Shown: positions 676 through 19,148 of the stretch, one piece after another | How positions within the stretch are numbered: position 1 is the stretch's first letter | Layout: each line of letters starts with the position of its first letter | Source: Candidatus Hodarchaeota archaeon | GTDB lineage: Archaea; Asgardarchaeota; Heimdallarchaeia; Hodarchaeales; Hodarchaeaceae | Length of the DNA stretch: 19,148 nucleotides | Direction: 5' to 3' | Assembly (NCBI GenBank): GCA_029856365.1 | Contig: JAHQWW010000071.1 | Coordinates: 1 to 19,148 of the forward strand | Program-made: the position numbers and the translations under genes | The notes under the pieces: model-generated | The model's database searches: none | What the model saw: the letters and a program-made list of their open reading frames with translations, nothing else | Told to the model about the DNA's origin: nothing

Positions 676-727
676 TTTACTCACATAATATCTTTTCTTA
701 TACAAATTTAAAAGTAGATCTTTTGAT

Positions 728-1396
728 TTAAGACCAGACCAAAATTTCGGATAACTTTTTTCTTTTTATATCAGGAACAGTTACCTCTTCCTTTGGATAT
801 CCAATAGGCATTATTACAAACGCTTTCTCGTTTTCAGGTCGGTTTAAATGATCTCGTAGAAAATTCATACTGATAGGGGTGTGTGTTAATGTTGCTAAGC
901 CTGCATTATGGATGGCCATAATGAGTATCCCAACAGCAATTCCAACACTTTTAGTTACATAATAATTTTTTCGTTTGTTATTGAATTCATCCAATCGATA
1001 CTTTTGTTGAAAAACGACTATTAAATAAGGAGCTATTTCTAGAAACGGTTTTTTCCAAGTGGTTCCTAAAGGAGCTAAGTCTTGACGCCACTCATTTGAA
1101 ATCCTACGTTCATAAAATTCTTTTTCTTCAAGTTCTGCAGCTACTCGAATCTTATGTTTGAGAACAGGGTCACTTACAATAACAAACGTCCAAGGTTGTT
1201 TATTTGCCCCCGAGGGAGCCGTACCAGCAGTTTTGATAATATTCTCAACGATTTCTCGTGGAAAAGGCTTATCTGAAAAATCCCGTATTGATCTACGAGA
1301 ATTGGCAAAATGATACATTTCTTGGGATCGTCTATTCATATCCTCCTTGGAATATGTTTTAAAGTGATAGGGAATAAATGAATACTTATTTTCCAT
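728..1396 (-). CDS. Nitroreductase-family flavoprotein, iodotyrosine deiodinase (IYD) subgroup
   Basis: RRSIRDF, APSGANKQPW, LATLTHTP and PIGYP motifs; IYD-type lid AELEEKEFY...W..DL.PLGT.WKKPFLE. ATG 1396 follows GGTGAGG, so it is preferred over the GTG at 1408. Confidence 0.88.
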   Translation of the reverse strand: MENKYSFIPYHFKTYSKEDMNRRSQEMYHFANSRRSIRDFSDKPFPREIVENIIKTAGTAPSGANKQPWTFVIVSDPVLKHKIRVAAELEEKEFYERRISNEWRQDLAPLGTTWKKPFLEIAPYLIVVFQQKYRLDEFNNKRKNYYVTKSVGIAVGILIMAIHNAGLATLTHTPISMNFLRDHLNRPENEKAFVIMPIGYPKEEVTVPDIKRKKLSEILVWS

Positions 1397-1576
1397 TGAC
1401 CTCACCACAAAACAGGCATGAGATGTATTTTAATAATACATTTATTGAATTTTCAGTCAAAATTTTCCCTAAAGGATGATTATTATTAGCTATAGAAATA
1501 CATATTCACTTTTACTAATAGTGGTATGATTTAGTGTTGTACCTTCTGAGAATCTGATAAAGTAAGTAGATGATAT

Positions 1577-3157
1577 ATGGATCCCAAAGAAAAAAGTTTT
1601 TTATCAGAAATTAGTGATATTTCAGGTCAAAAACTACTAAAAGTTGATAAGGTGGGATATGGAAGAAATGGTTATGTTGAGCAGCGCAATCATATAATAA
1701 AATTATCCATTTCCAATCTAAAACTTGATTATATCCCGGAAAGTATAGAAAATTTAACTGAACTAAATGCTCTTCATATGGGGGGAAATTATCTAACTAA
1801 AATATCAGATCCGATTTTAACCCTAAAGAATTTGGAACTTTTGGAAGCTTGGGAAAATAGGATTGAATCAATACCTAAAGATATTGGGGTTTTGGATAAG
1901 GTTTGGCGATTACATCTTGCAGGGAATAAAATTACCGAACTACCGTTTTCCATAGGTAATCTACCTATGAAGAAGCTGTATCTCAAACATAACAATGTTG
2001 GTTATGTTCCTGAAAGTATTGGGAATTGGATACATCTCGATGTTTTCGGTCTGCCAATCAATAATCTTCCAACACTACCTGAAACTATTAGTGGTTGGAA
2101 AAATGTACGCGTAATTTCACTCTGGCAAAATAAGCTTAAAGCGTTACCAGATGTTCAACTCAACGTTAAAGAATTACGTATTAATAACAATTTTTTTACT
2201 GAAGTCCCTCCTCGGGTGTATGAGATCAAACAATTAAGGAAGCTTTGGTTGAATAGCAATCAATTGACAGAGATACCAGAAATTTCGAGTGGTCATCTTC
2301 AAAATTTATGGTTTCTAGATTTACAGAATAATCTCCTTTCTTCATTACCTAAGTCTCTTCAATATTTACCTAACCTTCGTGATTTAAGACTCTCAGGCAA
2401 CCTGTTTGAGTCGTATCCAAGCTGGTTGGATTCTCTTAAAGGTTGTAAAGTTGACACCACGACTCATAGGCGACAAATACAACAACCAGATTATATTGGA
2501 GTCAAGAAATATGTGAAATATCTCGAAGATAATCACTTACCAATAGAACACTTAGTAGAGATAAAACAATTCCAGAGATTTCTTGAGAATGAGAAAGGAT
2601 TCTCCAGAATTGTGAAAGCAAAGGCTAATGATGTTAAAGATTATATTGCGCAGGGGGCAATTACAGCTTTTACATTGAGATCTTTGTATCTTTATTTCTC
2701 TTGGCTTCAAGATTATCCTTTGCGTCAAATTATCAAAAAAGAATTAGAAAATTTCGCAAAGATAATGAGTATTAATCTTCAAGATGTCAGCAGACTTGCA
2801 AAGGAATCGTTGGCTGTTACTTCATTATTATCATTGGACGTAACAGAAGAAGAGACCCCTAGCATTGTTTCCCGGCCCCAAATAATTGAACATAAAATTG
2901 AAGGGGAAGAATGGGAGTATTTCGTAGCAAGATTGGAGATAACTTCTTTAGATGCATTGAAAATCCTCTTAAAGTCTTCAAGACCAAAAATTGCACTTGA
3001 AAAATTTGCTAATAGCCAAAACAGACTTCCAGAAACCCTTATTGAATCAATTAACGAAATAGCATTGGAATGTATTGGTGATCTATTATTGGATCAAGAG
3101 ACCTATCAAATCACTGAAAAAGCATACGAACAGAAATTACGTGAAATTTCATTGTGA
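1577..3157 (+). CDS. Leucine-rich-repeat protein with helical middle domain and C-terminal TerB_C-like domain
   Basis: About 11 LxxLxLxxN repeats (~1690-2450). C-terminal ~130 aa (INLQDVSRLAKES...EEWEYFVARL...LPETLIESINEIALECIGDLLLD) align by eye with the C-terminus of the 9128-12622 protein. Confidence 0.88.
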   Translation: MDPKEKSFLSEISDISGQKLLKVDKVGYGRNGYVEQRNHIIKLSISNLKLDYIPESIENLTELNALHMGGNYLTKISDPILTLKNLELLEAWENRIESIPKDIGVLDKVWRLHLAGNKITELPFSIGNLPMKKLYLKHNNVGYVPESIGNWIHLDVFGLPINNLPTLPETISGWKNVRVISLWQNKLKALPDVQLNVKELRINNNFFTEVPPRVYEIKQLRKLWLNSNQLTEIPEISSGHLQNLWFLDLQNNLLSSLPKSLQYLPNLRDLRLSGNLFESYPSWLDSLKGCKVDTTTHRRQIQQPDYIGVKKYVKYLEDNHLPIEHLVEIKQFQRFLENEKGFSRIVKAKANDVKDYIAQGAITAFTLRSLYLYFSWLQDYPLRQIIKKELENFAKIMSINLQDVSRLAKESLAVTSLLSLDVTEEETPSIVSRPQIIEHKIEGEEWEYFVARLEITSLDALKILLKSSRPKIALEKFANSQNRLPETLIESINEIALECIGDLLLDQETYQITEKAYEQKLREISL

Positions 3158-3753
3158 GTATCTGATTCCACCAACGGCATAATCGTCGACTTTATCGCCG
3201 CCTCTCACTGAATGTTTTGAGTCCCATCGTTTTAATGCGAATTTTTCTTGGAAGGTATCACTAGTGCTTTAAAGCAGCTCTCTTAAATATTCCTCCCCCA
3301 GTAAGGATAGCCATATCAGTGATTTGAAAATGTATTTAAGGATTTAACAGAGAAAGAAGTACTAAAATAACCAAAATGTAAAATAGCTTCAAAAAAGATG
3401 GTTAAAAAAAGCAAACAAATTCAAAGAGAGACAAACTAGAGTATCCATCAATTATAGGGGGTTGATCTAATGGTTTTATCTTCAATGAAGGAATATCACA
3501 CTTCAATCGTTGAAATTGGTTTCGAAGAAATATAAACGAAGTAACTGATTAAAATCAATCTGTTCTGTTTAATCGAGGAAACTACATTTAACATCACTAG
3601 TCTTAAGATGATGAAGAATAAATAAAAAGTGAGAAGCGAAATTATTTTCTTTTTCATACAACGATTATCATTCCTACTGGTGAAATGAAAGGAAGAGAGA
3701 TATAAATCTCATCTCTTTTCGGTTCTGATATGCTTGTTGGATTTATTGAGGTT

Positions 3754-5421
3754 TCATCGTTTTTGCTTTTTGCGGAAAGAGATTATCACACCTGTAGCAC
3801 TGAGAAGATAAATGAAACTTGGGAAATTCACTTCCACTGGAGTGGTTGTAGGAGATGGTGGGAGAGTTGGGAGATCCGTAAAATTCAATTGAGATATACA
3901 GACATCGGATTGGCCATTCAATGTCTTATTCAATGCATTGTTTGTTACGGGATAATCTGCGGAATCGGTGCTACCTACAATAACCACGGAATTCTCACTA
4001 AGAAGTAGATAATCAGGTTTATTCGGCCCCCAAATTCCACTCTGCCACAGAGTGGGTTCATATTCACTTCCACCTAGATATGAGGAATACAAAATGCAGG
4101 AACCATTTGATGGCATTTTCGTAATTATAAAATCGAAATCTCCTTTGTTTGTTGTGGCATAGGCATTTGAGCTTGTTGGATAATTGTCAGACGCAGAGAC
4201 ACCCAATAGATAAATATTGTTCTGGTTATCTAGAAGAATTTTTTCAAACACATCTAAATCTAAACCTCCAAGATAGCTGGAATAGAGCAATTCTCCACTT
4301 GAAGCTATTTTCATTAAAATACCATCATCGACCCCTTCTATGGAATTGAATGTCTTATCAAACGCATTCGAGGTGATTTCTATATCTGAAGAACATGTAA
4401 ACCCTGCCAAGTACATTGTTCCAGATCCATCTACAGCCATATCAAAAACTGTATCGGGGGCAGAACCGCTTACATACGTCGAATACAGCAGTTCGGATCC
4501 ATCCAGTGATATTTTTGCAATGAATCCATCACAATTGTAATCCCCAACTGATTTACCCACAGGATCAAAAGCATTGGATGTGATTGGGAGATCTAGAGAG
4601 TATGTCTGCCCAGAAATATAGATATTATTTTCAGTGTCTAATAAGATGTTTAAGTAAACTTCTTGCATCGAACCCCCAAAAAAAGTGGAATAAAGGAGTA
4701 AGGAGCCATTCGATGCTAATTTTGAAACAAAAGCATCCCATTCCCCGTTATGTGTTGTATTCAACGCGTCTGGTGTTGTTGGAAAGTCAGTTGATTCGGT
4801 AAATCCTGACAAGTAGATATTATCAGCTTCATCTACAGCCAAGCTGCGAGCGTTCTCTTCCGCATCGGATCCACCAAGATATGTAGAGAACAAGAGATCA
4901 GATCCATTTGCTGCTAATTTAAGAACAAACATATCTCCTGTTCCACTATATGTATCATCATATGCACCAGGGGTCACGGGAAAATCAGATGAATGTGTTG
5001 GTCCATGAACTATAATATTATCTGAAGAATCAACTGCAATCGCAATTTGTGACGCCCAATGGTCTTGTGAATAATGATGTAACTCGTCTTCACTTCCTCC
5101 AATATATGTTGAGAAAATTAATGATGACCCATCTGGGGAAAATTTACTCACAAACACATCCACACCTCCATTATGGGTTTCATCGTATGCCCCAGAAGTT
5201 ACAGGAAAGTCCGTTGAATATGTTAATCCTGCGATAATGATATTTCCTTGACTATCTTGAATTGTTGCGGTTCCAATATCAATCGCTGATCCTCCCAAGA
5301 ATGTGGAATACACTAAATCATCTAAATCTAGATTTTCAGTAGTAACAGGATTTATTCCTTGTCCTAATGAGAATGATACAAAAGTAATTCCTATAATTAA
5401 TAACCATTTTTTCTTCATCAT
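3754..5421 (-). CDS. Secreted/surface SBBP-repeat beta-propeller protein with C-terminal membrane anchor
   Basis: Signal peptide MMKKKWLLIIGITF; about 7 repeats of YSTYLGGS..D......D..xNIYxxGxTxSxDFPxT..AxD; Pro/Thr linker followed by FPSF-hydrophobic helix-RKKQKR. Confidence 0.88.
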   Translation of the reverse strand: MMKKKWLLIIGITFVSFSLGQGINPVTTENLDLDDLVYSTFLGGSAIDIGTATIQDSQGNIIIAGLTYSTDFPVTSGAYDETHNGGVDVFVSKFSPDGSSLIFSTYIGGSEDELHHYSQDHWASQIAIAVDSSDNIIVHGPTHSSDFPVTPGAYDDTYSGTGDMFVLKLAANGSDLLFSTYLGGSDAEENARSLAVDEADNIYLSGFTESTDFPTTPDALNTTHNGEWDAFVSKLASNGSLLLYSTFFGGSMQEVYLNILLDTENNIYISGQTYSLDLPITSNAFDPVGKSVGDYNCDGFIAKISLDGSELLYSTYVSGSAPDTVFDMAVDGSGTMYLAGFTCSSDIEITSNAFDKTFNSIEGVDDGILMKIASSGELLYSSYLGGLDLDVFEKILLDNQNNIYLLGVSASDNYPTSSNAYATTNKGDFDFIITKMPSNGSCILYSSYLGGSEYEPTLWQSGIWGPNKPDYLLLSENSVVIVGSTDSADYPVTNNALNKTLNGQSDVCISQLNFTDLPTLPPSPTTTPVEVNFPSFIYLLSATGVIISFRKKQKR

Positions 5422-5542
5422 TTGCTTTTCACCTGTTTTGTATTTTTAATCATCCTACAAAGCATGATTTGCAAAGTTTACAAAAGATATTAGTCTCAAT
5501 TGTCACAAAAACCAATATATATACTTATTCATGGTTTTCTAA

Positions 5543-5591
5543 TGTTCTAACATTTATACAACTTATTATTTACTGTACCAAAGTTAGAACA
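5543..5591. promoter_or_regulatory. Tandem palindromic operator-like sites (consensus TGTWCTAA-N2-TTAGAACA) upstream of the SBBP gene
   Basis: TGTTCTAA-CA-TTTATACA at 5543-5560 and TGTACCAA-AG-TTAGAACA at 5574-5591, 31 bp apart; a near-identical site lies at 8477-8496. Confidence 0.6.
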
Positions 5592-5636
5592 CTAGTTAAG
5601 AATTAGAAAAAAATTATAAAAAATTGCTGAAAGATT

Positions 5637-6212
5637 TCAATTTGGTCGAATTCCCCACATTTTTAATGATTCAAAAACGAATGCCAGAGTTCCTATTGTT
5701 AGAAATACAAAGAGTAGGACACTTCCAGGATGTGTGATAAAATCATCACCCATAATGAATGATAAGATAAAAAAAGCAAAAAATCCACAGATAAATAAAC
5801 TGAGATAGATCGAAAAACGGGGGATCATTCGATACCCAAAACGAATATAAAAACCAAGAATACCAGATTTAACTTCCTCCTTTATATAATATTTTTCTGA
5901 TTCCTCATGTTTTGAAATAATTCCCAATTCGGTCAGCTTGTTGAGTTGATATGAAACTATGCCTGGTGAAGAAAAGTTTAATGATTTCTGAATTTCACGT
6001 ACACCAGCAGCTCCATGCGTTATAAGGTACCAATATACTTGAAGCGGTTTTCCCTTGAGAACTTCATCATATTGTATAGATTCTTTTTCACTCTGCATTT
6101 TTGACATACCTGAAGGGAATAATCTTCGGATTAAGGTAGGAAAAGTATACTGATTTGAAAATTCATCATCTTTTATAAGGGAAAAATCTTTCTTTCCATC
6201 AAGTGAGTTCAT
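5637..6212 (-). CDS. Winged-HTH transcriptional regulator with two C-terminal transmembrane helices
   Basis: LKGKPLQVYWYL...GVREIQKSLNFSSPGIVSYQLNKLTELGII (archaeal wHTH) followed by two hydrophobic helices after MIPRF. ATGA overlap with the upstream gene; the true start may be ATG 6107 or 6098. Confidence 0.85.
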   Translation of the reverse strand: MNSLDGKKDFSLIKDDEFSNQYTFPTLIRRLFPSGMSKMQSEKESIQYDEVLKGKPLQVYWYLITHGAAGVREIQKSLNFSSPGIVSYQLNKLTELGIISKHEESEKYYIKEEVKSGILGFYIRFGYRMIPRFSIYLSLFICGFFAFFILSFIMGDDFITHPGSVLLFVFLTIGTLAFVFESLKMWGIRPN

Positions 6213-8362
6213 TTTAATTCATACTTCCTCCTTAAATAATTTACCTGCTTATAATTATAATAAATAGTGACAGTGGCAACTGCTATGATTAACCCCGAGA
6301 CTATTGATATTCCAAATAAATATTTAAAGGTTTTTTCTATAATTTCTGTTCCTACACGAAGTAGAATATCTCCTTTTACTTTAATCTCAACATATTGAAG
6401 GCTTGAATTTCTCACTATTGATTGTATTTCATTCCACTCTGCAGATTGATCATCCCATTGAAATACTGGAATCTCCTCTTCTCCAGAAATAACAATTTCA
6501 CTAGGCTCATAATAACAACGAAACAGATATTCTTCTTTTTGGTTATCAACTGTTGTTTTAAAGTATTTCCCTCTTTCTTTACGATTAAGATTGAATGTAT
6601 TCAAAGAAGTACTCATTTCTGAAGTCACTGTGAGTTGATTTTTTGTATTTATTATTCCATCAGTAAAAGGAAAATAAATAGATTGATTGATGATTTCTAT
6701 ATTCTCGATTATTTTTGGAGTAATTTTCGGACTATTGATAAAATTAAAATATACTCCTCCTTCAGGGATTGGATCCACCCAAATATAAGACTCAACTGAT
6801 GCTGTTTTTAGATATCCATGCTCAAATTCTGCTAATAGTATATGAGGTACATATTCATGTACACGCTGTAATATTTTGGAGAGGTAAAAAGGTTTTTCTT
6901 GTTTCACCGGAGTTTGTATAATCAATGAAGTATAAGATTCCAGGATAGAATCTGATACTTGGGTCCCAATATTGTTTGAACCTTGTGTATTGAGCAGGGA
7001 GTATAAGTCATAACCCCAATCTCCACTAAAACCCCATGATACGAAATAAATGCCATAATCTCCTCGATAAAAGTCATTATACCAATCAATGCTATCAGAA
7101 ATCGAATAAATACATAATATACCAATTTCATCTAGATAATTCCCAAATTGTATAATATCATCTTTCATCCAAGGGACTCCAGCAACTTTTAGAGAAAAAC
7201 GGTAGCCATCTAGTTCACTTCTTCGTGGATAACCAGCTTTATCTAAAAGGATATTAGCATGTTCGGGATCATAAGAAAGACTCAGAATAGAGGCATTCCC
7301 TAACGTGTCATCTGGAATTATGTTTTTGGCAAGGAAATATTTTAGAGGGAACCGATTCTTTTGTTGTTTTAGATATGTTTCTTTGTTAATTGCATAGTTT
7401 AATGCAAGACGGACCTCAACTTTGGTAAGCTCTGGTTTTTGATGATTAAGAAAACCAAGTACCATACCTCGGGGATAGTGATATACTAGCTTCCAATAAT
7501 CTAGATTTAAATCTGAATAATTACAAATAGAGGATATGAACGGGCCTACTTCTCCTTTTTGATCTAGCACTGCTTCTACAGCATCTTCTAATGACCAATA
7601 TAAGAGATAATATATCGTTTCAAAAGGAGGATCCCCACGATAATAATTTGGAAATTTTTTAAACGTATAATTATAATAATTGTCTTCCTGGGTGATCATT
7701 TGTAAGACATAAGGACCTGTTCCGATTGGCCAGTTAAATTCCTCGATATTAATTTCAGGATAACTTGAGAATGAGGGAAATCGAATTTTAGCTGCTTGAA
7801 TTCGTATGAAAGGGGAGTAGGGCATTGAAAAATTGATACGGATTGTATATTCATCAATAATTTGTACTGATTCAAGAGGCATTGTAAAATAGTCATAAAT
7901 TGCCTCGTTCGGTTTTTCTGGATCATACCACAACAATGTAGTTGGATCAAGGATCATATTGAATGCTGCTACAACTGCTGAAGCATTGAATAGTGATCCA
8001 TCATGACACATAATATTTTCTTTTAAATAAAAAGTCCACTGCTTACTATCATTCGTTACAACCCATTGTTTGGCTAGAACGGGAATTACATCACCTGTTA
8101 CGGGATCTACTTCTACAAGTGTATCGAAGGGTAGCGATAATAATGAATGTGTGTCGTACATCGGATGAAATGTAGGCACAAACTTTCCTGCCATACCATT
8201 AATTATGGTGATTGATTTTGGAGGATATTGATTTTGTACACTTTTTTCGATTTGACCATTGGTAATATTAGTATCGATCTGAGGTATTGCATAGGTATTC
8301 ATTGAAATGACTGCAAGTAAAGATAATTGTAAAATGACTAAAAAAGAAAATATTCTCTTCAT
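6209..8362 (-). CDS. ABC-type family-5 (peptide/nickel, OppA/DppA-like) solute-binding protein with extra C-terminal domain and TM anchor
   Basis: Signal peptide; FDTLVE..P.LAKQW...WTFYLK...HDGS.FNA.AV, PIGTGPY, VRLALNYAINK and YDPEHA..LLDKAGY motifs; C-terminal hydrophobic helix with basic tail. Confidence 0.88.
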   Translation of the reverse strand: MKRIFSFLVILQLSLLAVISMNTYAIPQIDTNITNGQIEKSVQNQYPPKSITIINGMAGKFVPTFHPMYDTHSLLSLPFDTLVEVDPVTGDVIPVLAKQWVVTNDSKQWTFYLKENIMCHDGSLFNASAVVAAFNMILDPTTLLWYDPEKPNEAIYDYFTMPLESVQIIDEYTIRINFSMPYSPFIRIQAAKIRFPSFSSYPEINIEEFNWPIGTGPYVLQMITQEDNYYNYTFKKFPNYYRGDPPFETIYYLLYWSLEDAVEAVLDQKGEVGPFISSICNYSDLNLDYWKLVYHYPRGMVLGFLNHQKPELTKVEVRLALNYAINKETYLKQQKNRFPLKYFLAKNIIPDDTLGNASILSLSYDPEHANILLDKAGYPRRSELDGYRFSLKVAGVPWMKDDIIQFGNYLDEIGILCIYSISDSIDWYNDFYRGDYGIYFVSWGFSGDWGYDLYSLLNTQGSNNIGTQVSDSILESYTSLIIQTPVKQEKPFYLSKILQRVHEYVPHILLAEFEHGYLKTASVESYIWVDPIPEGGVYFNFINSPKITPKIIENIEIINQSIYFPFTDGIINTKNQLTVTSEMSTSLNTFNLNRKERGKYFKTTVDNQKEEYLFRCYYEPSEIVISGEEEIPVFQWDDQSAEWNEIQSIVRNSSLQYVEIKVKGDILLRVGTEIIEKTFKYLFGISIVSGLIIAVATVTIYYNYKQVNYLRRKYELK

Positions 8363-8476
8363 AGGTTTTTCCTTGCCATTATATTTCTGCTTTCAGAGAT
8401 TAAAATATGATTCTTTTATACATGTACTTATTTTAAATCTTTCTACCCATCTTTGCTGTTTTAATACAGTTTCAGC

Positions 8477-8496
8477 CTGTACTAACTTTAGAACAG
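8477..8496. promoter_or_regulatory. Palindromic operator-like site upstream of the solute-binding protein gene
   Basis: CTGTACTAA-CT-TTAGAACAG is a 9-2-9 inverted repeat with 1 mismatch; 16/19 identical to 5573-5591. Confidence 0.6.
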
Positions 8497-8904
8497 TATT
8501 TTCCTTTTAGATTTGATTTGACCCTAATGGTTTCAGATTCATAAATTAATGAAAAACAAGTCCTCCTTATACTTTTCAGAATAAGCTTATAAAAGACATG
8601 AGTTCTATATCAGAAGATAAATCATAAGCAATATTAATTAGAAAGAAGGATTTTTTGGAATATTTAGGATCTTTCACTAGCATCTTATCATCATAAGGAG
8701 TACCATCGGAATTCTTGTTGAATCAAATGTGTTTTTCTTTTCAGTGTTGGATTTTTACTTGATCTGGAGTAAAATTTCCGAATACAAATATCCAAGATGT
8801 TAAAAAGCTTTTACAGGAATCATTTACACAATTGATATTAGAGTAATCTTGATATATAACTATATCATCTTATGATCATGTTATTAACCTTTTTAAAAGA
8901 CTTC

Positions 8905-8922
8905 TCATCAAAATTTTGATGA
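8905..8922. repeat. Perfect 18-bp palindrome, possible operator upstream of the Shango-like operon
   Basis: TCATCAAAA-TTTTGATGA; a 7-4-7 inverted repeat TGATATA-TAAC-TATATCA lies at 8850-8867. Confidence 0.45.
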
Positions 8923-9127
8923 TGATTGACATCTAATGGATGTTTTCACACTCTAGATAGGGTTCAGAGTCATTCTGATATTGAAGAAGGTGTGTAATAA
9001 TATTATAAACACTTATCCATATTATCCTCTTATTGAAATAAAGTTCTCTCTCTAACTCTGAACACGGTATTAATTAGAGTTGATTGAGTAAAAAGAATCT
9101 TATGAGTTGTACGGTAGGCATCTTTCG

Positions 9128-12100
9128 ATGTCAACAACTATAACAATTGTTGCAGAGAATTTTCGGGATAAAACACAAAAAATAGGAGATTCTCCGTTAT
9201 CTATCCCCAAAAAATTCGCAGATGTTTCTCCTGTGAAGGTAACGAGAATTATTATAGCTTTTCAAGGCAACTCTATCCTTAACATTGGAGATTACTTTTC
9301 TTTTCAGATTTCCTCCGAAAAATCTATAATCCAGATAGAAACTCAAACTGAATTGTATGTCCAAATTGATGAAATAACCTCATTTGAATCAATATTAGGA
9401 TATATTAATGAGGAGGAAATCGAATCAATCCTTCAAATATCTCCAAAAGAAATTAATTATTGGATTGTAGCAATTGTCCTTGGATACTATTCTCCAAGAC
9501 GAAAGAAGATACTAATGCCAGAAGATTCCCTCATAGGAAAGGTAGGGAAGATTTCTGATTCAGAATCTATATTAATTTTTCTAAACCAATATATGGAATG
9601 TCTATTTTACAGTTTCCCCCTTAAACTAATAAATTACTTAGTTTATAACTCGATCCAAGGAAGTAAGTTCTGTCAAAGAGGGAATACCAAGATTATGGAG
9701 AAAATTCTTCCTAAAATCTTAAAAAACGTCAACAAACGCTTTTTAAAATATGAAAATAAAGAATTTCTTAAAATATTTCCGCCGCAAACGAGTTTCGCCA
9801 TTGTAAAAGAAACAGCAAATATCAATGATATTAAGCAGGAATATATTGATTGGCTTGCTTCTAATAAACCAATGGTGAATTTTTTAACTGATATAATGAA
9901 ATACACTGAAAAAAAATTAAGCCTAATTGTGAAATATCGAGGGAAAGTAGAAGTAAATCCAAGACCACTTCCTGATCACATCAGAGAAATTGTTCAAACA
10001 GAACTAAAGAAATATGAAGGAAGACTCCAACCAAGAAGAAAACTGGATCAAAAACAACCAGTCTTTGCAGATTTTGAAATTGGTTTCACGCCAGAGAAAC
10101 AAATCGAAATATCTATCATAGAACCTGAAGTGAATTCACAGGTTAGTATTGACAATAAGAAACCAATCCCCATTGAAATCAAAAAAATCATCTCCAAAAC
10201 TAGTGAAAATCAAGAAGATATTAGTGAACTTGAATCTAAGATGAAGCTCGCTGCTCACTCTCTGGACTTTAAGAAAGCATCCAGAATTCGAGAGAGAATT
10301 GAAGAGTTAAAGGGAGAAGATAACGATAGAGAAACAGAAAAACAACCTTCTGACTTCAAAACGACTTCAGTAGAGAAGTCTCTTAGAACTCCCAAATTCG
10401 TACCATTTGACCAATACTGGCCAACCTTAGACACCCTGAATGAGGATCAAAAGAGGTGGTACGATTATTGGGTGTCAGAAATCGAAAACGGACATTATTA
10501 TCCAACCGATTTGTCATATATTTTTCTTTATATTTATCAAGCACTTGATTATGAAGATAAAGAAAAAGGCTATCGCATTTTACGGGACCTTTGGATTCAT
10601 TATCGAAAAGAACATCCTAAACTGGATCGTTACTTGATTGATTGGATAACGGATTATATTCTTCTTCATAAATGTCATTATGATCAAAGGACTATACTAA
10701 AGGAATTATTCAAATTTCATTCAAAATACACACTTGAATGTCTTGATTCAATACTGACATTATTTCCCCCTCGCTCATTTAAAGAAATGCCAATTGATTG
10801 GATTAATGTTCTGACAAATAACAGTATAAGAAGTAGTTCATTTTATGTGTCGAAACCCAATGTCATGAATGAAATAATACCTGAAGTACTTGATGCAATT
10901 GATCGATATTATCATGAGAATGAAAATATAGGCTTATTAGAGAAATTTAAACCTGATAAAGTCACACGGTTCGTTTTTGATCGAGCACTCAAGGATGAAA
11001 GTTATCTTACTAAGACTATTGAAGTTTTATCCTACACAAAATCGCTACCTCTTCTTGTTTTCATCTCCGAGGTTGTAAGCACAACAGAAAGTAAACTACG
11101 TAAGTATTATCGTTTTCCAGCCCTTCCTCATATTAGTATATTAGAAAGAGAAATCGAAAAAGTAATTGAAACCACATTTACGAAATTTATCAATGAGTTG
11201 AGTCAAACAGAACGTGAGACAGAATTATCCTTCATTGATGCAGCTCAGAAATATGTTGACAGAGTTGAAGATGACGATAACGCTAAACCTGTTCCTCTCT
11301 ACCAATTTCAACCAAATTATCAAGATATGACAAAAGCTCAGTTGAAATGGTACTTTTATTGGCGTAACCACATCAGGAATGGAAATTTTCTTTCTACTCA
11401 GATTGGGTACATTATTTTATATATTTATGAAATTATCAATGATATTGGAACCCAGGATCATCAGGAGGGTTATAAACGATTATTAGCTATCTGGGAATAT
11501 TATCGTATTGATAATCCTGAATTGGATGAATATTTACCTGAGTGGATCGTGGAATATTCAATACTAAAAGAAATTCCTGTTGATGGTATCGAAAAACTCT
11601 ATCATAATATCTTAAAAAGATTAGATAGGAGAGAACAAAGAGATCTCCGATATGAATTAACGGAACTCCTACTTTCTCAGTATCATCATGAAGTATTTAA
11701 CAAAATTCCAATCAAAATGATCTATGAGCTCGTAGGATATCTTAATTTTTTACCCTATACCAGATTAAACAAATCTGTTCGGCTCACAATGGATCAACAC
11801 GTTAGTACTATCCTAAATGAAGTGAATCAATACTATTTGCAAAAGTACAAAAAATCTTTGTTTGAATTCTATCACCCAACCAAGAAAAGGAGAATCCCCT
11901 TTGTTCTCGCCCGATATTTTGGTGATATCGATATTATGGAGGTAAAAAGCTACACACGACAATTCTTAAATTTTTTAGATAATACCATAAGATTTATCCA
12001 TAATCGTTTTCGTGATATCGAGTTAGATACAACCAAAACCCGATTAAAGGCTGAAATTCCTGATCCTGAAGTTGAAGCATTAATTGATCATTATTTTGTT

Positions 12101-12622
12101 GATAACTTAAATGCCACAAACATCACCCCTAAATATTCTAAAATAGCATTACAGGTTCAAAGTGGCGATCTAGGTGTAGACCAAACTAAAATAAAAGCAT
12201 TAACCGAAGAATCTGATGAAATTCAAATCCTTTTAACAAGCTCAGATACATTTGAGTTTGAGGAGGAAGAATCTGTACCAGCGTTAGAAGAAGTTCAAGA
12301 AGAAGTTGAAGTAATGGTTAATCAAGAATCTGTTCAGGAAGTAGAAGCAAGCGAACCAGATGAGTGGGAACTATTCAGATTAAAATTGACTGATCTTCAA
12401 TTAAGAATTTTAACGATATTAATAACCAGTGAAAACCCTAAAGAGCAATTAAATCAAATAGCTGAACAAACTGGGACGTTACCAGAAGCGATAATAGAGT
12501 CAATAAACGAAACTGCAATTGAGATCATAGATGATGTAATAATAGATGGTGAACTCCTTAAACTAATAGATGAGTATTTAGATAATATTAAGTCAATTAT
12601 CAAGATATTATGGTGTAAGTAA
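9128..12622 (+). CDS. sngA: Shango SngA-like protein: unknown N-terminal region, UVR (UvrB/C) motif, two TerB_N domains, acidic linker, TerB_C
   Basis: TerB_N signature twice (FVPFDQYWPT...QKRWYDYW...TDLSYIFLYIYQ; PVPLYQFQPNY...QLKWYFYWR...TQIGYIILYIYEIIN); TerB_C signature LPEAIIESINETAIEIIDDVII; followed by a DUF2791 ATPase and helicase genes. ATG 9128 after GGTAGG is preferred over TTG 9107. Confidence 0.85.
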   Translation: MSTTITIVAENFRDKTQKIGDSPLSIPKKFADVSPVKVTRIIIAFQGNSILNIGDYFSFQISSEKSIIQIETQTELYVQIDEITSFESILGYINEEEIESILQISPKEINYWIVAIVLGYYSPRRKKILMPEDSLIGKVGKISDSESILIFLNQYMECLFYSFPLKLINYLVYNSIQGSKFCQRGNTKIMEKILPKILKNVNKRFLKYENKEFLKIFPPQTSFAIVKETANINDIKQEYIDWLASNKPMVNFLTDIMKYTEKKLSLIVKYRGKVEVNPRPLPDHIREIVQTELKKYEGRLQPRRKLDQKQPVFADFEIGFTPEKQIEISIIEPEVNSQVSIDNKKPIPIEIKKIISKTSENQEDISELESKMKLAAHSLDFKKASRIRERIEELKGEDNDRETEKQPSDFKTTSVEKSLRTPKFVPFDQYWPTLDTLNEDQKRWYDYWVSEIENGHYYPTDLSYIFLYIYQALDYEDKEKGYRILRDLWIHYRKEHPKLDRYLIDWITDYILLHKCHYDQRTILKELFKFHSKYTLECLDSILTLFPPRSFKEMPIDWINVLTNNSIRSSSFYVSKPNVMNEIIPEVLDAIDRYYHENENIGLLEKFKPDKVTRFVFDRALKDESYLTKTIEVLSYTKSLPLLVFISEVVSTTESKLRKYYRFPALPHISILEREIEKVIETTFTKFINELSQTERETELSFIDAAQKYVDRVEDDDNAKPVPLYQFQPNYQDMTKAQLKWYFYWRNHIRNGNFLSTQIGYIILYIYEIINDIGTQDHQEGYKRLLAIWEYYRIDNPELDEYLPEWIVEYSILKEIPVDGIEKLYHNILKRLDRREQRDLRYELTELLLSQYHHEVFNKIPIKMIYELVGYLNFLPYTRLNKSVRLTMDQHVSTILNEVNQYYLQKYKKSLFEFYHPTKKRRIPFVLARYFGDIDIMEVKSYTRQFLNFLDNTIRFIHNRFRDIELDTTKTRLKAEIPDPEVEALIDHYFVDNLNATNITPKYSKIALQVQSGDLGVDQTKIKALTEESDEIQILLTSSDTFEFEEEESVPALEEVQEEVEVMVNQESVQEVEASEPDEWELFRLKLTDLQLRILTILITSENPKEQLNQIAEQTGTLPEAIIESINETAIEIIDDVIIDGELLKLIDEYLDNIKSIIKILWCK

Positions 12623-12657
12623 GATCCTATCATATTTACTTGGAAGGACGTAATGTA

Positions 12658-13989
12658 ATGATGTCAAAGAAAAGGATACCTCAACGTGTATCAGCGACAA
12701 TACTTAAATCCTTGAGTGCTGGTGTAGTACCTCGTATAGGCTTAGAACACATAGCTGTAGGCCGAAAAGAGGAAATAGAATCATTATTAGAAGATTTGGA
12801 AAACATTGAAGTTGGTAGTGCAGCTTTTCGGTTTTTCATTGGACGATATGGATCGGGAAAGAGTTTCTTAATTCAACTCCTAAGAAACTATGCAATGGAT
12901 CGGGATTTTGTGGTTGCTGATGTAGATTTATCCCCAGCTCGACGATTCATTGGAGCAGGAAACAAAGGTGTTGCTACGTATCGTGAGCTCATTTCAAATA
13001 TGTCCACAAAAACACGTCCTAGTGGTGGCGCATTAACAGCTATTTTAGAGAAATGGATATCCAAGATCCAATCCACAGTGATCACCGAAAAAGGAATCAA
13101 ACCTACTGATCCTGTTTTTGTTGATCAGGTGGAAACAGAGATAATAAATGCCGTAAATAATATAAAAGATCTCGTTCATGGCTTCGACTTTGCTATCGTC
13201 ATCTCAACATATTGGCGAGGTCATAAACTAGGTGAGGAAGAAACAAAAGAAAAGGCACTTCGATGGTTACGAGGGGAATATACTACAAAAACTGAGGCAC
13301 GAAATAGCATAAGTGTTAGTATCATTGTTGATGATGATTCTTGGTATGATTATATCAAATTATTGGCACGATTTGTCACAGAAATTGGATATAAAGGATT
13401 ATTAATCTTTTTTGATGAAGCTGTCAACTTGTATAAGATAACTCATACTCAATCGCGGACTAATAACTATGAAAAACTGTTAACAATGTATAATGACACT
13501 ATGCAAGGAAAAGCTGAATATCTAGGAATTTTTGTTGGAGGAACACCCCAATTTCTTGAAGATAGACGAAGAGGTCTCTATAGTTATGAAGCACTCCATT
13601 CTCGTCTCGTTGAAAGTCGGTTTACTAAAAATGGTTTGCGTGATATATCAGGCCCCGTTATAAAACTTGAACGGTTAACCTTGGAAGAGATTTTTGTACT
13701 TTTAACTCGTGTTATGAATGTTCATGCTCTCCACTATAAATATGAAGCATTCTTAACTAATGATGAGCTTCAAGAATTCATTAAAGTAATAGTCAGTCGC
13801 ATTGGAGCTGATAAACTCCTTACTCCTCGTGAATTTGTTCGGGAGTTCATTATCTTATTAAATGTCTTAAGAAGAAATCCACAACAATCCTTCTTAGGTT
13901 TAATTCATGGAGAAGACTTCAAACCACAAGTTCCAAGCCAGTTAGATGAATCTGTACAAGGAACGGAATATGAGGAATTTACCTTATGA
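12658..13989 (+). CDS. sngB: Shango SngB-like P-loop ATPase (DUF2791 / BrxD family)
   Basis: SLSAGVVPRIGL...VGR..E N-terminus, Walker A GRYGSGKS, Walker B LLIFFDEA, RRGLYSYEALHSRL, TPREFVREF. ATG 12658 or 12661 follows GGAAGGA. Confidence 0.9.
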   Translation: MMSKKRIPQRVSATILKSLSAGVVPRIGLEHIAVGRKEEIESLLEDLENIEVGSAAFRFFIGRYGSGKSFLIQLLRNYAMDRDFVVADVDLSPARRFIGAGNKGVATYRELISNMSTKTRPSGGALTAILEKWISKIQSTVITEKGIKPTDPVFVDQVETEIINAVNNIKDLVHGFDFAIVISTYWRGHKLGEEETKEKALRWLRGEYTTKTEARNSISVSIIVDDDSWYDYIKLLARFVTEIGYKGLLIFFDEAVNLYKITHTQSRTNNYEKLLTMYNDTMQGKAEYLGIFVGGTPQFLEDRRRGLYSYEALHSRLVESRFTKNGLRDISGPVIKLERLTLEEIFVLLTRVMNVHALHYKYEAFLTNDELQEFIKVIVSRIGADKLLTPREFVREFIILLNVLRRNPQQSFLGLIHGEDFKPQVPSQLDESVQGTEYEEFTL

Positions 13990-16223
13990 GTGACGCTATC
14001 TTCAGCCGTTTTCCTGCATTCATTCAAGAATGGATTTACTCGCATGGATGGGAGGAATTACGTGAAATTCAAATAGCTGCAGCTCAAACGATATTTACTA
14101 CAAAAACCCACGTACTATTAGCGACTGGTACCGCAAGTGGAAAGACAGAAGCAGCTTTTTTACCTGCTTTAACACTAATTCATGAAGATCCCCCTGCAAG
14201 TATTGGAATACTTTACATCTCACCTTTGAAAGCTTTAATTAACGATCAATTTAACCGTATAGAGGAATTATTAGAGGAAGCAGAGATTTCAGCTTGGCCT
14301 TGGCACGGTGATATCCCTCGAAATCTGAAAAGAAAACTAATTGAAAATCCCAATGGTGTTCTCCAAATTACACCCGAATCTATGGAAAGTTTGTTAATAA
14401 ACAGACAACAAGATTTACGTAGAATGTTTGGTGATCTCCGATTTGTGATTATAGATGAAGTCCATGTCTTTATGAACGCAGAGAGAGGGATTCAAATTTT
14501 ATGTCAATTAGAACGCCTAGGGAACATCATTGGATATCATCCCCGTCGTATAGGTCTTTCAGCAACTCTAAGCGATTATAGTTCTGCAGAAAAGTGGTTA
14601 AGTTCAGGTACCAATATTCCAGTGAATACTCCAAAGGTCCAAGGATTAATCAAAAGAATAAGATTGGCTGTTGAGAATTTTATTGATCCTAATCCTAACC
14701 CCTCTGGAATAATGCAATATAGTGAGGCTGGTGAATTAATTGCTCCTACTTCAGAACCCTCTTCTGAGCCATATCCCTCAAATTTGTATTTATTTGATCA
14801 AACGTTAAATCGTCAATGTTTGATCTTTACTAACACACGGGAAAGAGCAGAAACTACAATCAATGCGCTAAGAGCAATTGCTGATCAAAAAAAATACCCA
14901 AATCGGTATTATATTCACCATGGAAGTATTTCAGCTACTCTAAGAGAAGAAGCTGAAACAATCATGAAAGCAGGAGACATCCCTTCTGTAACAGCATGTT
15001 CAGTTACCTTGGAATTAGGGATTGATATTGGATCTCTGGAAAGAATTATTCAAATTGGATCCCCACGAACAGTATCCAGCTTTTTACAACGTCTAGGGCG
15101 ATCAGGTAGAAAAAAAGCTGATGTATCTGAAATACTTTTTATTCATTCAGAAGAAGAACCATCAGATAATAAACCACTACCTTACTTAATTCCATGGGAA
15201 TTAATCCAATCAATTGCAATTATTAATTTATATTTAGAAGAGCGTTGGATTGAACCAATCCAAGAATTAAAATCTCCATTTAGTTTATTATACCACCAAA
15301 CAATGTCTTCTCTCGCTTCAGCAGGTGAACTCTCTCCTCAGGCTCTTGCTCAACGCGTACTATCATTAACACCATTTCAACACGTTTCTCAAGACGATTA
15401 TCGTATTCTCATTCGTCATCTTATTGAATTGAACCACATCGAGCAGATTGAAGATGGAGGGTTAATTATTGGTTTAGATGGTGAACGAATTATACGTAAC
15501 TATCGATTCTATGCCGTCTTCCCTGATGTGGTGGAATGGACGGTAAAGGATGCAGAAGAGTCATTTGATGAAATAGGTAAAATTGGACAGTTATTTCTTC
15601 CAGGTGATCGGTTTCCTCTAGCAGGATATACTTGGGAAGTTAAAGAAATCTATCCAGATCAAAAAATAATAATAGTATCAAAAGTGGGTGGTCGTACGAG
15701 ATATTTTTGGCCTGGAGGAATTGCTCCTGTTCATACTAGGATCCTTCAACAGATGCGAAAAATCCTTTTTGAAGACAAATTTTATCCTTATTTGCAGCCC
15801 AGTGCCATTGAACGGATTCAACAGGTTAGAACACTAGCTCGGAAAGTAGAGATGGATAAACGAGTGCTTTTCCAACTTGCTGGCCATAAATTTGTCCTTA
15901 TCCCTTGGGCTGGATCAATTTCATTTCGTACAATCGGAAGAATATTAGAATTCCATTCTGAAGAATTGGGGATCAGAAGTATAAGTCAACAATCTCCCTA
16001 TTTCTTTTTATTTGAAGCAGAGGATCAATCAAGAGATAATCTTGAATTAGTAATTAAGAAATTGTGTAGTAGAATTAAATCACCTTCTGAACTTATCAAA
16101 GAGGATGAGATCTTTGTCTGGCGGAAATTTGATCAATATATTCCGATGAATCTCCAACAGCAGACATTGATGGATGATTATTTGGATTTGGAAGAAGTTA
16201 AAGATATTATCCAAAGCTGGTGA
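13986..16223 (+). CDS. sngC: Shango SngC-like Lhr-family SF2 DEAD/DEAH helicase, copy 1
   Basis: TASGKTEAAF, PLKALINDQ, TPES, DEVH, SAT, TLELGIDIG, QRLGRSGR; ATGA overlap with the ATPase stop. Confidence 0.92.
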   Translation: MSDAIFSRFPAFIQEWIYSHGWEELREIQIAAAQTIFTTKTHVLLATGTASGKTEAAFLPALTLIHEDPPASIGILYISPLKALINDQFNRIEELLEEAEISAWPWHGDIPRNLKRKLIENPNGVLQITPESMESLLINRQQDLRRMFGDLRFVIIDEVHVFMNAERGIQILCQLERLGNIIGYHPRRIGLSATLSDYSSAEKWLSSGTNIPVNTPKVQGLIKRIRLAVENFIDPNPNPSGIMQYSEAGELIAPTSEPSSEPYPSNLYLFDQTLNRQCLIFTNTRERAETTINALRAIADQKKYPNRYYIHHGSISATLREEAETIMKAGDIPSVTACSVTLELGIDIGSLERIIQIGSPRTVSSFLQRLGRSGRKKADVSEILFIHSEEEPSDNKPLPYLIPWELIQSIAIINLYLEERWIEPIQELKSPFSLLYHQTMSSLASAGELSPQALAQRVLSLTPFQHVSQDDYRILIRHLIELNHIEQIEDGGLIIGLDGERIIRNYRFYAVFPDVVEWTVKDAEESFDEIGKIGQLFLPGDRFPLAGYTWEVKEIYPDQKIIIVSKVGGRTRYFWPGGIAPVHTRILQQMRKILFEDKFYPYLQPSAIERIQQVRTLARKVEMDKRVLFQLAGHKFVLIPWAGSISFRTIGRILEFHSEELGIRSISQQSPYFFLFEAEDQSRDNLELVIKKLCSRIKSPSELIKEDEIFVWRKFDQYIPMNLQQQTLMDDYLDLEEVKDIIQSW

Positions 16224-18508
16224 GGGATCTGGCCTCAGATCAATTCTATCGATTAGCTCCATGGATTCAAGAGTGGATTTATCGGCAACAATGGGAGGTT
16301 TTTAGACCAATTCAAGAAGAGGCTTGTAAAGTCATTTTCGACAGTCCTCATCATCTTCTGTTAGCAACTGGGACTGCTAGTGGGAAGACTGAAGCTGCTT
16401 TATTTCCCATCTTGACTCTATTGGATCAAAACCCTTCCACAAGCGTCGGTGTTTTATATATCGGACCATTAAAAGCCCTTATTAATGACCAGTTCCAGCG
16501 AGTCGAAGATCTCCTCCAAGAGGCAGACATAAAAGTTTGGCGATGGCACGGAGACGTTCCACAGAGTCATAAATCTAAATTAGTACAAAATCCAAGCGGA
16601 ATATTGCAAATAACTCCAGAATCATTAGAAAGCTTATTGATTAATCGTACTGCTAATTTACGTAGACTTTTTGGTGATTTAAGATTCATTATTATTGATG
16701 AAGTTCATGCATTCATGCCTCAATTATCTGATAGAGGAAGACAGGTTATTTGTCAACTCGAACGTCTTCAAGAGTATACAACCCGAATTACACCACGACG
16801 AGTAGGTCTTTCAGCTACTCTTGGTGATTATTCCTATGCAGAACAGTGGTTAGCATCAGGTACTACTCTACCTGTTGTAACTCCGATAACAAATGAACCC
16901 TCGAAAAAGCTTCGAATTGGTATTGAACATTTTACCGAAACAACATGGTACCAAGCAAAGATGAGAGGCCAACCCCCACCACGCGGCCTTGACCTCCCGT
17001 CCCATAGATGGATCTTTGATTTAACTTTAGGAAGAAAATGTATTATATTCCAGAATGATCGTGAACGAACTGAGTTAATAACTCATGGATTGCGAGAGAT
17101 TGCAGAATCAAAAGGTTTACCAGATGTTTACCATTCACATCATTCCTGTATTGCTGGTCTGTTAAGAGAAGATGCAGAAGAGTTTTTGAAAGAAAAGAAT
17201 GGAGTTCCTCATGTTGTTGCAGCAACTATGACACTAGAACTAGGTATTGATATTTCTGACATTGAAAGAATTATTCATGTTGATAGCCCTCATGCTGTAT
17301 CCACTTTCGTGCAACGTTTGGGAAGATCTGGTCGAGTGAATAATGCATCTGAGATGTTATTTGCTATTTCGGAGAATCCTAAATCCCCGCGTACTCCTCT
17401 TGTATATCAACTCCCTTTTAGGTTATTACAAGCCATGGCTGTTGTGCAGCTCTATCTTGATGAAAGATGGATCGAACCAGCTATTCCACTCAAAAAGCCA
17501 TTTTCCATATTATTCCACCAAACCATGTCAATTCTAGCTGCAGCTGGCGAGCTTTCTCCTCAAGGGTTAGCCAAAAGAGTATTATCTCTGACTCCTTTTA
17601 AAAATATTAACATGAACGAATTTCGTGTATTATTAAACCATCTAATTAACAATGATTATATAGAGCAAATTCAAGATGGTGGACTCATTCTTGGCTTAGC
17701 TGGAGAGAAAATTGTCCGAAACTACCGCTTTTATGCTGTATTTCGAGACTACGCAGTTGACTATTCAGTCAAAGAGGGAACACATGAAATTGGCCATATT
17801 GAACAACTCCTTGAACCAGGTGATCAATTGTTAATTGGGGGGTATCCTTATCGAATAACTCAAGTTTATCCCAAACAAAAGGTTATGCTAGCAGAAAAGA
17901 TAAATGAAAAACCATTGTATGTATGGCCAGGGAGATTAGCTCCTGTTCATACCAGAGTTCTTCAACGAATGCGGCGTTCTCTCTTTGAAGATCAAAGTTA
18001 TTCATTTCTTCAGAGAGCAGCAAGACTTCGTCTGGAAGAAGGACGTCTATTCGCAAAAGCGCAACAGTTAGACAGGAAGGTTTTATTGCAGGAGTCAAGA
18101 AACAGATATAGTCTACTACCGTGGATGGGATCCACACCCTTTAGGACACTTCTTCGTATATTGAAATTTTTAGGCCCAGACACTCTAGGCATTAGATGGT
18201 TACAGCCTGAACCTGTTACGACAACTGATCCCCATCTTCCAGTCCATGTGGTTCAATTTGAAACAAGTAGTTATAATAACGTTAATTCTCTATATAGGGA
18301 TCTATACAATCTAGTAGAAAGCGTTACAGAGAAAGAATTACATCGACTATATGAGCAGACTGAGAAGTTCATTTATGAACGCTACCATCATTTATTACCA
18401 ATAGAATTGCAGCGGGAGGTCTTAGTTCATAACTATCTAGATCTAAATGAGCTGAAGGATGTTATTCGTACGTGGGAGGATTATTCCATTTACTGGCATA
18501 ACGAATAG
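16220..18508 (+). CDS. sngC: Shango SngC-like Lhr-family SF2 DEAD/DEAH helicase, copy 2
   Basis: Same motif set intact (TASGKTEAA, DEVH, SAT, TLELGID, QRLGRSGR); GTGA overlap with the copy 1 stop. Confidence 0.92.
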   Translation: MRDLASDQFYRLAPWIQEWIYRQQWEVFRPIQEEACKVIFDSPHHLLLATGTASGKTEAALFPILTLLDQNPSTSVGVLYIGPLKALINDQFQRVEDLLQEADIKVWRWHGDVPQSHKSKLVQNPSGILQITPESLESLLINRTANLRRLFGDLRFIIIDEVHAFMPQLSDRGRQVICQLERLQEYTTRITPRRVGLSATLGDYSYAEQWLASGTTLPVVTPITNEPSKKLRIGIEHFTETTWYQAKMRGQPPPRGLDLPSHRWIFDLTLGRKCIIFQNDRERTELITHGLREIAESKGLPDVYHSHHSCIAGLLREDAEEFLKEKNGVPHVVAATMTLELGIDISDIERIIHVDSPHAVSTFVQRLGRSGRVNNASEMLFAISENPKSPRTPLVYQLPFRLLQAMAVVQLYLDERWIEPAIPLKKPFSILFHQTMSILAAAGELSPQGLAKRVLSLTPFKNINMNEFRVLLNHLINNDYIEQIQDGGLILGLAGEKIVRNYRFYAVFRDYAVDYSVKEGTHEIGHIEQLLEPGDQLLIGGYPYRITQVYPKQKVMLAEKINEKPLYVWPGRLAPVHTRVLQRMRRSLFEDQSYSFLQRAARLRLEEGRLFAKAQQLDRKVLLQESRNRYSLLPWMGSTPFRTLLRILKFLGPDTLGIRWLQPEPVTTTDPHLPVHVVQFETSSYNNVNSLYRDLYNLVESVTEKELHRLYEQTEKFIYERYHHLLPIELQREVLVHNYLDLNELKDVIRTWEDYSIYWHNE

Positions 18509-18526
18509 CTTTTACTGATATTTTAC

Positions 18527-19147
18527 TTAGGAAAATAATGTCAAATTTTCAAGTTTTTCTAATACTATATTGTACGCTTTTTTTTCTAATTCTTCAAGTA
18601 ATGTGCTTTTACCATTTAAGAAAAAATCAATGATATAGGGATGGGCAGCTTGAGGAATGTTTAATCTCCTAAATTCGCTCTTGTCTAGCTCAAAAACATC
18701 TTTGGGATGTTTTTCCAGAAAAGTTGCTGCTTTGTTTAATTGGTATGTTTCACCCGAGGATTTTTCTCGAATAATCCAGGAGGCAATGTAGGCAGCTCTC
18801 AGCAATATTTCAACGAGTCGGAGATTATTCTCAATCCGTCCAGGGGGGATATATCGTTTTGAAGTATAAGGAAGACTAAATTCATGGTTGTATTTGAATG
18901 ATTTTATCTCTGGATAGATAAGATTAAGCCTTTTTAATTGAAAATAATCTAAAGTCCCATATTTATTGTTGTTTCCATACAATTGCCGATATTTAGATAA
19001 AAGATGGGGATAATGTTTTTGGATTGTACGGAGAAAACTTATTTTATTTCTACCAGGTTTTAGGGTTAATGACCAAACGTATACAAATTCTGCACCTACA
19101 TCTATCGCTTTCTGAAATATTGCTAGCATATTTTCGTCTGTATCTCC
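18527..19147 (-). CDS. C-terminal part of a radical-SAM protein, SplB/Rv2578c-like (5' end outside the window)
   Basis: Frame is open to the window edge (GDTDENMLAIFQKAIDVGAEFV..SLTLKPG..K..F...I..HYPHL..KY..LY), resembling the post-barrel segment of this family. The CxxxCxxC motif is not in the window. Confidence 0.6.
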   Translation of the reverse strand, partial: GDTDENMLAIFQKAIDVGAEFVYVWSLTLKPGRNKISFLRTIQKHYPHLLSKYRQLYGNNNKYGTLDYFQLKRLNLIYPEIKSFKYNHEFSLPYTSKRYIPPGRIENNLRLVEILLRAAYIASWIIREKSSGETYQLNKAATFLEKHPKDVFELDKSEFRRLNIPQAAHPYIIDFFLNGKSTLLEELEKKAYNIVLEKLENLTLFS

Positions 19148-19148
19148 A

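Follow-up and report, generated by a model that had tools for sequence, protein, structure and literature searches.

A Shango locus in a Hodarchaeota genome is accompanied upstream by a gene for a 526-residue protein that shares only its TerB_C domain with the Shango protein SngA, carries a leucine-rich repeat (LRR) solenoid and a core-binding-like helical bundle in place of TerB_N, and is kept beside this Shango subtype under selection. The stretch analyzed here (the window) comprises 19,148 nt, positions 1-19,148 of the forward strand of contig JAHQWW010000071.1, from assembly GCA_029856365.1 of Candidatus Hodarchaeota archaeon, a metagenome-assembled genome (MAG) of 4.24 Mb that is 84% complete. 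Shango is a system of three genes encoding a TerB-like protein, an ATPase and a helicase, which gives modest protection through a mechanism that is not known (10.1101/2022.11.11.516204; 10.1101/2022.05.11.491447); activity against viruses has been reported only for the bacterial three-gene systems (10.1101/2022.11.11.516204). The system is listed as enriched in Asgard archaea, in an account that does not mention an LRR partner (PMC11291487). The first-pass annotation of the window, made by a model from the sequence alone, knew of no LRR component described for Shango, and we likewise found none in the papers searched, nor any description of the LRR and TerB_C combination. We read the LRR protein as an accessory component of a five-gene, genus-specific Shango variant (LRR protein, long SngA, SngB and two SngC), a reading that we consider evenly balanced between right and wrong.

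By gene content, positions 9107-18508 of the window are a Shango locus, with a predicted antiviral function. SngA combines UVR, TerB_N (146 bits) and TerB_C (46.6 bits) matches in Pfam with a PADLOC match at 2.6e-92. SngB scores 554 bits against Pfam (DUF2791/BrxC_BrxD) and 4e-187 against the PADLOC SngB model; its Walker A motif reads GRYGSGKS in a motif scan, and G68/G71-K74 and D259-E260 are invariant in 13 sequences (alignment A6), the latter pair being the candidate Walker B. Downstream of SngB the PADLOC SngC model is matched twice, at 1.5e-225 and 5.5e-211, by helicases whose motifs are intact in both copies (Table 1). The four genes are tightly packed and overlap or abut, the two SngC frames sharing 4 nt. 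The Shango-like operon of the first-pass annotation, with its TerB_N/TerB_C SngA, DUF2791 ATPase and Lhr-like helicases, is borne out by PADLOC and Pfam. Every Asgard Shango locus seen, the divergent L041 and L042 included, has two tandem intact SngC genes; the bacterial three-gene system has one.

The homology of the LRR protein to SngA lies in its tail. The Pfam TerB_C family (PF15615, gathering cut-off 26.3 bits) is matched at 31.2 bits over aa 394-519, and at 34.4 bits in the genome scan, and a direct BLASTP comparison with SngA aligns 55 aa at 45% identity (E 2e-8). Profile-profile comparison (hhalign) of 17 LRR-protein orthologues with SngA tails returns a probability of 98.5% (E 2.4e-15) and equates aa 394-526 with SngA aa 1019-1169 (99.4%, E 5.9e-22); the profile search against TerB_C that the first-pass annotation had proposed as a check therefore comes out in its favor. 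The three motif pairs on which that annotation had based the homology are present in the translations and aligned in alignment A3, where the motif LPE..I..INE.A.E..GD..ID is common to the LRR tail and the SngA tails and its N, D and P are invariant. The two proteins hold the only TerB_C domains in the window's genome, and the mean pairwise identity of their TerB_C cores (0.71 vs 0.73) indicates an equal rate.

This similarity is confined to aa 394-526. The LRR protein also matches the PADLOC SngA model at 6.8e-17; the envelope of that match, aa 311-522, was considered as homology beyond TerB_C and rejected, the middle domain being unrelated to SngA by HMM (hidden Markov model) search and by hhalign alike, and an HMM search with aa 300-404 recovered orthologues only and no SngA. 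The protein does not belong to the SngA family: Pfam finds no TerB_N in it, and its N-terminal 300 aa are LRRs. A TerB_C tree, built to ask whether its tail was copied from the adjoining SngA, groups the LRR proteins in a single clade whose long branch arises from an unresolved polytomy.

The fold of the protein was examined with an AlphaFold2 model of the full length (predicted local distance difference test, pLDDT, 72.8) and a separate model of aa 300-526 (pLDDT 79.2), built from a 72-row alignment enriched in TerB_C domains and compared by VIA-align with 48,161 representatives of the PDB. The middle domain (aa 305-387), modeled at pLDDT 86-92, finds tyrosine-recombinase core-binding domains as all six of its best matches, among them XerD (1a0p; Z 9.5, root-mean-square deviation 2.2 Å, 80 residues), the N-domain of a Haloarcula integrase (3nrw; Z 8.5), archaeal XerA (Z 8.2) and Brujita Int (Z 8.1). 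Pfam Phage_int_SAM matches are sub-threshold only, and Phage_integrase finds no recombinase catalytic domain (R-H-R-Y) in the protein, whose aa 394-526 are TerB_C. In the models, then, the middle domain is a core-binding domain by fold only and a candidate DNA binder. It had been missed by the first-pass annotation, and with it a DNA-directed role becomes as plausible, on the modeled fold, as the receptor role proposed there.

The TerB_C region consists of a conserved helix (aa 394-420), a disordered acidic linker (421-442) and a core (442-526) that is winged-helix-like. MarR, STAND and ORC/Cdc6 winged helices match the modeled core equally, at Z 6-7, so that the resemblance is generic and indicates no single family, and Foldseek with the C-terminal-half model gave no match in the PDB at E <= 0.001. 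Pfam finds no NTPase family in the protein, and the models show LRRs, a helical bundle and a winged helix only; neither a signal peptide nor a membrane helix is evident in the sequence. The limit of homology at TerB_C, the recombinase core-binding fold of aa 305-387 and the winged-helix TerB_C core are new here.

The repeats match Pfam LRR_4, LRR_8 and LRR_14 and form in the model a solenoid of alternating strands and helices; most blocks have a mean pLDDT of 76-94, and a few fall near 65. Scaffold positions apart, the solenoid is most conserved on its concave face, which abounds in Arg, Lys, Trp and His: 37 of 55 positions are invariant in the 17 orthologues, and the entropy is 0.32 vs 0.50 for the rest of the domain. 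As modeled, such a face would be less in line with an arms-race receptor than with binding of a fixed partner or of nucleic acid. The only other LRR paralogue in the window's genome at E <= 1e-8 is a 259-aa open reading frame (ORF; G000:C78:11279-11863) with 38% identity over aa 94-287, and the LRR domain therefore does not come from a large local expansion.

The distribution of the protein was surveyed across 399 species genomes of Asgard archaea. Seven of them, all in one genus (22 species), contain the LRR-TerB_C C-terminal half, and exactly the same seven contain SngB at 93-96% identity. The first-pass annotation had asked whether LRR-TerB_C proteins are tied to Shango; they co-occur with this Shango subtype in 7/7 carriers. 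A wider search with the C-terminal half adds 14 clusters (68-76% identity), every one of them LRR+TerB_C and labeled Asgard; the orthologues' NCBI labels are Heimdall-, Hod- or Promethearchaeota, in keeping with the Asgard host that had been supposed.

In every assembly that allows a call, the LRR gene lies upstream of sngA on the same strand. The gap from its stop to the sngA start measures 281 bp in G076, 297 bp in G073, 335 bp in G077, about 530 bp in JBHLQX010000005, about 736 bp in G078 (whose contig ends inside sngA) and 1,520 bp in G069; in the window it is 5,950 bp, which agrees with the roughly 6 kb of same-strand spacing first noted. In further MAGs the LRR and long-SngA clusters, whose longest contigs match in length, are probably on a common contig. 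The block of LRR gene and SngABCC has constant ends, although its flanking context takes three forms. The three genes that intervene in the window lie on the opposite strand and do not belong to the system; in other carriers they are missing or shrunk to collinear remnants: the spacers of G069 (L003 11600-13119), of L005 (11600-12149) and of G078 (L038 996-1731) are collinear remnants of window 3158-9106, one of them a 75-aa fragment of the solute-binding protein. The insert is therefore old, predates the species and was deleted independently several times, with the LRR gene and sngA kept.

An apparent exception, CP070760, in which the LRR gene and Shango lie 260 kb apart, was rejected as a scaffold-gap artifact. 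Runs of 100 N stand 50 bp after the LRR gene (L004 11649-11747) and directly before a C-terminal SngA fragment (L040 9055-9154), and part of SngC-2 is split off at 2.59 Mb (G067:C1:2590628-2592319). In this assembly (3.16 Mb, 70% complete, single contig) the pieces of Shango lie in three places and genes are interrupted within their frames, so that its gene order is unreliable.

With pairwise dS (synonymous divergence) about 0.9 for all five genes, the ratio of nonsynonymous to synonymous divergence (dN/dS) is 0.15 for the LRR gene and 0.17 for SngA, and 0.034, 0.057 and 0.054 for SngB, SngC-1 and SngC-2. By these sequence comparisons the LRR gene is evidently functional, constrained by purifying selection to a rate like that of SngA, and both change three to five times as fast as the motor genes.

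TerB_C is attached to other front ends elsewhere. A profile search of 1.84 billion proteins (E <= 0.001) yielded 1,398 TerB_C representatives; among the best 150, from which architectures were drawn, most have TerB_N, about 20 lack it and have coiled-coil or unassigned N-termini, and none outside this LRR family carries LRRs. A word-based search for longer TerB_C proteins found close relatives only. Two proteins with TerB_C and no Pfam TerB_N, P0098 and P0037, occupy the SngA position before a BrxC_BrxD ATPase, followed in the one case whose contig continues by a DEAD helicase, which implies that the N-terminal module beside TerB_C is exchangeable in Shango-like operons. TerB_C is therefore a modular domain, and its link to the SngB/SngC module is frequent without being universal.

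If the LRR protein is indeed an accessory component of the locus, the TerB_C region (helix, acidic linker and winged helix) would serve as a common handle by which it and SngA reach the same partner or substrate, which could be the SngB/SngC motor or else DNA. In that case the LRR protein would be a second source of input for one ATPase-helicase output, and that input might be a conserved ligand on the basic and aromatic concave face, possibly together with DNA on the middle domain; the LRR gene would be driven by a separate promoter, and its transcription would not have to be joined to that of sngA. Prediction of a complex of SngB, the SngA tail (aa 930-1171) and the LRR C-terminal half gave ipSAE 0.00 in two runs without controls, which speaks neither for nor against binding. 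The more general form of this proposal, in which N-terminal inputs are exchanged on one TerB_C handle and SngA and the LRR protein sit side by side on one motor, with LRR-to-AAA+ coupling in trans, is possible, and we lean against it. The first-pass annotation had suggested a swappable receptor; against a swappable or fast-evolving one speak the conservation of the LRR face and the finding of a single N-terminal alternative, the LRR, in the lineage.

Several observations weigh against an accessory role. Divergent Shango loci without the LRR protein occur in the genus member G059 and in two genomes of other Asgard families, with SngBs 74%, 73% and 49% identical to that of the window, so the LRR protein is not needed for Shango as such. 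Outside Shango, a coiled-coil+TerB_C protein stands in an unrelated neighborhood; TerB_C thus has some function independent of SngB and SngC. The LRR gene is parted from sngA by a promoter-like conserved block, and in the window by the three opposite-strand genes as well, and operon coupling of the two is therefore absent. Between the window (728-18508) and G076 (L036), dS climbs along the locus, from 0.28 in the NitroR flank through 0.40 in the LRR gene and 0.66 in SngA to 0.96 in SngB and 0.78-0.87 in SngC, which means that the LRR gene and the motor genes do not have a single shared history; the gradient suggests recombination inside the block, with motor genes exchanged between lineages. 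Finally, one of the flanking genes shows 75-80% identity between carriers but no more than 56% in the remaining members of the genus. The seven carriers are probably one subclade, and the co-occurrence may then reflect one ancestral event and conserved synteny and would not be independent evidence.

One alternative is that the LRR protein is an independent neighbor, a paralogue with a captured TerB_C that is adjacent by shared ancestry in a young subclade, works on its own, for example as a DNA-associated scaffold, and gives no input to SngB/SngC. We regard this as rather unlikely. The apparent monophyly of the carriers, the existence of TerB_C proteins outside Shango and the separable histories implied by the mosaic dS all agree with it, as does the LRR-clade TerB_C on its long branch, which is not a recent copy of the neighboring SngA tail; moreover, translational coupling is absent for the LRR gene, in contrast to the overlapping or abutting SngA-B-C-C. 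Against it, none of the 399 genomes has LRR-TerB_C or this Shango subtype alone, the two stayed adjacent at dS about 0.9 although their flanks were rearranged and the spacer was lost several times independently, and the genome's only two TerB_C domains are those of the LRR protein and SngA.

Directly 5' of sngA lies a block of about 270-290 bp (window 8839-9106; L035 3783-4078; L036 5982-6261) that bears on a second alternative. Across six genomes (alignment A8) it has long invariant runs and is far more conserved than the SngA protein; it contains a TATA-like ATTATAAA and makes up nearly the entire LRR-sngA spacer in G073 and G076. Neither covariation support for an RNA structure, nor an Rfam family, nor a conserved ORF was seen in it. 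It is probably a promoter/operator region.

The second alternative holds that the LRR protein is a regulator and not a sensor, either a DNA-binding, ligand-responsive transcription factor, whose core-binding-like bundle and winged helix would act on this block while the LRRs take in the signal, or a competitive decoy whose TerB_C would fill the SngA site and so hold the system off. Given the modeled folds and the roughly 290-bp conserved block, a role in regulation or directed at DNA has to be taken seriously as a rival: two domains have predicted DNA-binding folds, the LRR gene would be its own transcription unit and lies immediately upstream of the block (nearly the whole spacer in two genomes), and the conserved LRR face fits a fixed partner. 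Set against this, the same TerB_C tail is found on SngA, which by no evidence is a transcription factor; the winged-helix matches are generic (Z 6-7); and the LRR and sngA upstream regions share no motif that could be a common operator, nor was a binding-site repeat identified. On balance we think the regulator unlikely, and retain the accessory component as our preferred reading.

Table 1. Features of the window at the LRR protein gene and the Shango locus
Feature	Position	Strand	Basis
LRR / core-binding-like / TerB_C protein gene, 526 aa (P0001)	1577..3157	+	ORF, Pfam LRR families and TerB_C
About 11 leucine-rich repeats, aa 40-295, after N-terminal cap	1694..2461	+	Pfam, AlphaFold2 model, repeat parsing
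Four-helix middle domain, aa 305-387, tyrosine-recombinase core-binding (SAM-like) fold	2489..2737	+	model, VIA-align
TerB_C region, aa 394-526	2756..3154	+	Pfam, hhalign, alignment A3, model
Three intervening genes: SBBP beta-propeller, TrmB-like HTH (helix-turn-helix), family-5 solute-binding protein	3754..8362	-	Pfam
Conserved non-coding block directly 5' of sngA	8839..9106	+	alignment A8, six genomes
Long SngA, 1171 aa: N-terminal extension, UVR motif, two TerB_N-like units, TerB_C tail	9107..12622	+	Pfam, PADLOC, phmmer mapping
SngB, BrxD-like (DUF2791) AAA+ ATPase	12640..13989	+	Pfam, PADLOC, invariant columns, motif scan
SngC-1, Lhr/BrxHI-like helicase, motifs I, II (DEVH), III, VI intact	13986..16223	+	Pfam, PADLOC, motif scan
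SngC-2, SngC-1 paralogue (49% identity), motifs I, II (DEVH), III, VI intact	16220..18508	+	Pfam, PADLOC, motif scan

Other Asgard loci contain further proteins beside Shango-like genes. The divergent Shango locus of G059 encodes a 646-aa tetratricopeptide repeat (TPR) protein (L041 16417-18357, +) with a weak match to the TPR-S 'sensor' family and no TerB_C, transcribed divergently from SngA (L041 12404-15550, -). In G131 (L043 7851-20003) a TerB_C-only protein of 578 aa precedes a 50% identical SngB-like ATPase; beyond the ATPase, large ORFs lie on the opposite strand, give no SngC match at 1e-5 and may be another set of partners.

The natural paralogue described here, which keeps only the tail and has another front end, marks the TerB_C tail as the constant part of Shango. 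If the LRR protein does feed SngB/SngC, it would reveal how the system gets its signal and would be a case of LRR-to-AAA+ coupling in the Asgard archaea, near the stem of the eukaryotes. Otherwise the family would still illustrate cleanly how domains are shuffled around TerB_C.

Compared with known systems, the locus has the Shango hallmarks of a TerB_N/TerB_C SngA, a DUF2791/BrxD-like ATPase and an Lhr-like DEAD/DEAH helicase in the order A-B-C, and differs in having five genes instead of three, a duplicated SngC, an archaeal host, an SngA of twice the usual length (N-terminal extension, UVR motif and second TerB_N-like unit) and the additional upstream LRR/core-binding-like/TerB_C protein, which has not been described for Shango. 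Its motor resembles the BrxD-BrxHI dyad of type 2 bacteriophage exclusion (BREX), in which BrxD, an ORC/Cdc6-type AAA+ ATPase tightly linked to BrxHI, has been proposed to be a helicase loader (PMC12839542): SngB is similar to BrxD (PADLOC 6.7e-52) and SngC to BrxHI (8e-115), whereas PglX, PglZ, PglW and BrxC are absent and the module is paired with TerB-type proteins. The TerB_N-less TerB_C proteins likewise carry the tail on a different N-terminal module, although P0098 and P0037 stand in the place of SngA and the LRR protein supplements a full SngA. With the tyrosine recombinases XerD, XerA and lambda Int the middle domain shares the four-helix fold (Z 9.5-6.5, root-mean-square deviation 2.2-2.5 Å, 73-81 residues), but the LRR protein lacks their catalytic domain and its sequence similarity to them is sub-threshold. 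The first-pass annotation had also drawn an analogy to nucleotide-binding LRR (NLR) receptors, which holds conceptually only, since the LRR protein has no NTPase domain. As in NLR/STAND proteins, an LRR solenoid accompanies an AAA+-type NTPase system in a defense locus, and the TerB_C core superposes on STAND winged-helix domains (Z 6.5-6.7); unlike in those proteins, any coupling would be in trans, the winged-helix likeness is no better than to MarR or ORC/Cdc6, and the concave face of the LRRs is conserved and not diversifying.

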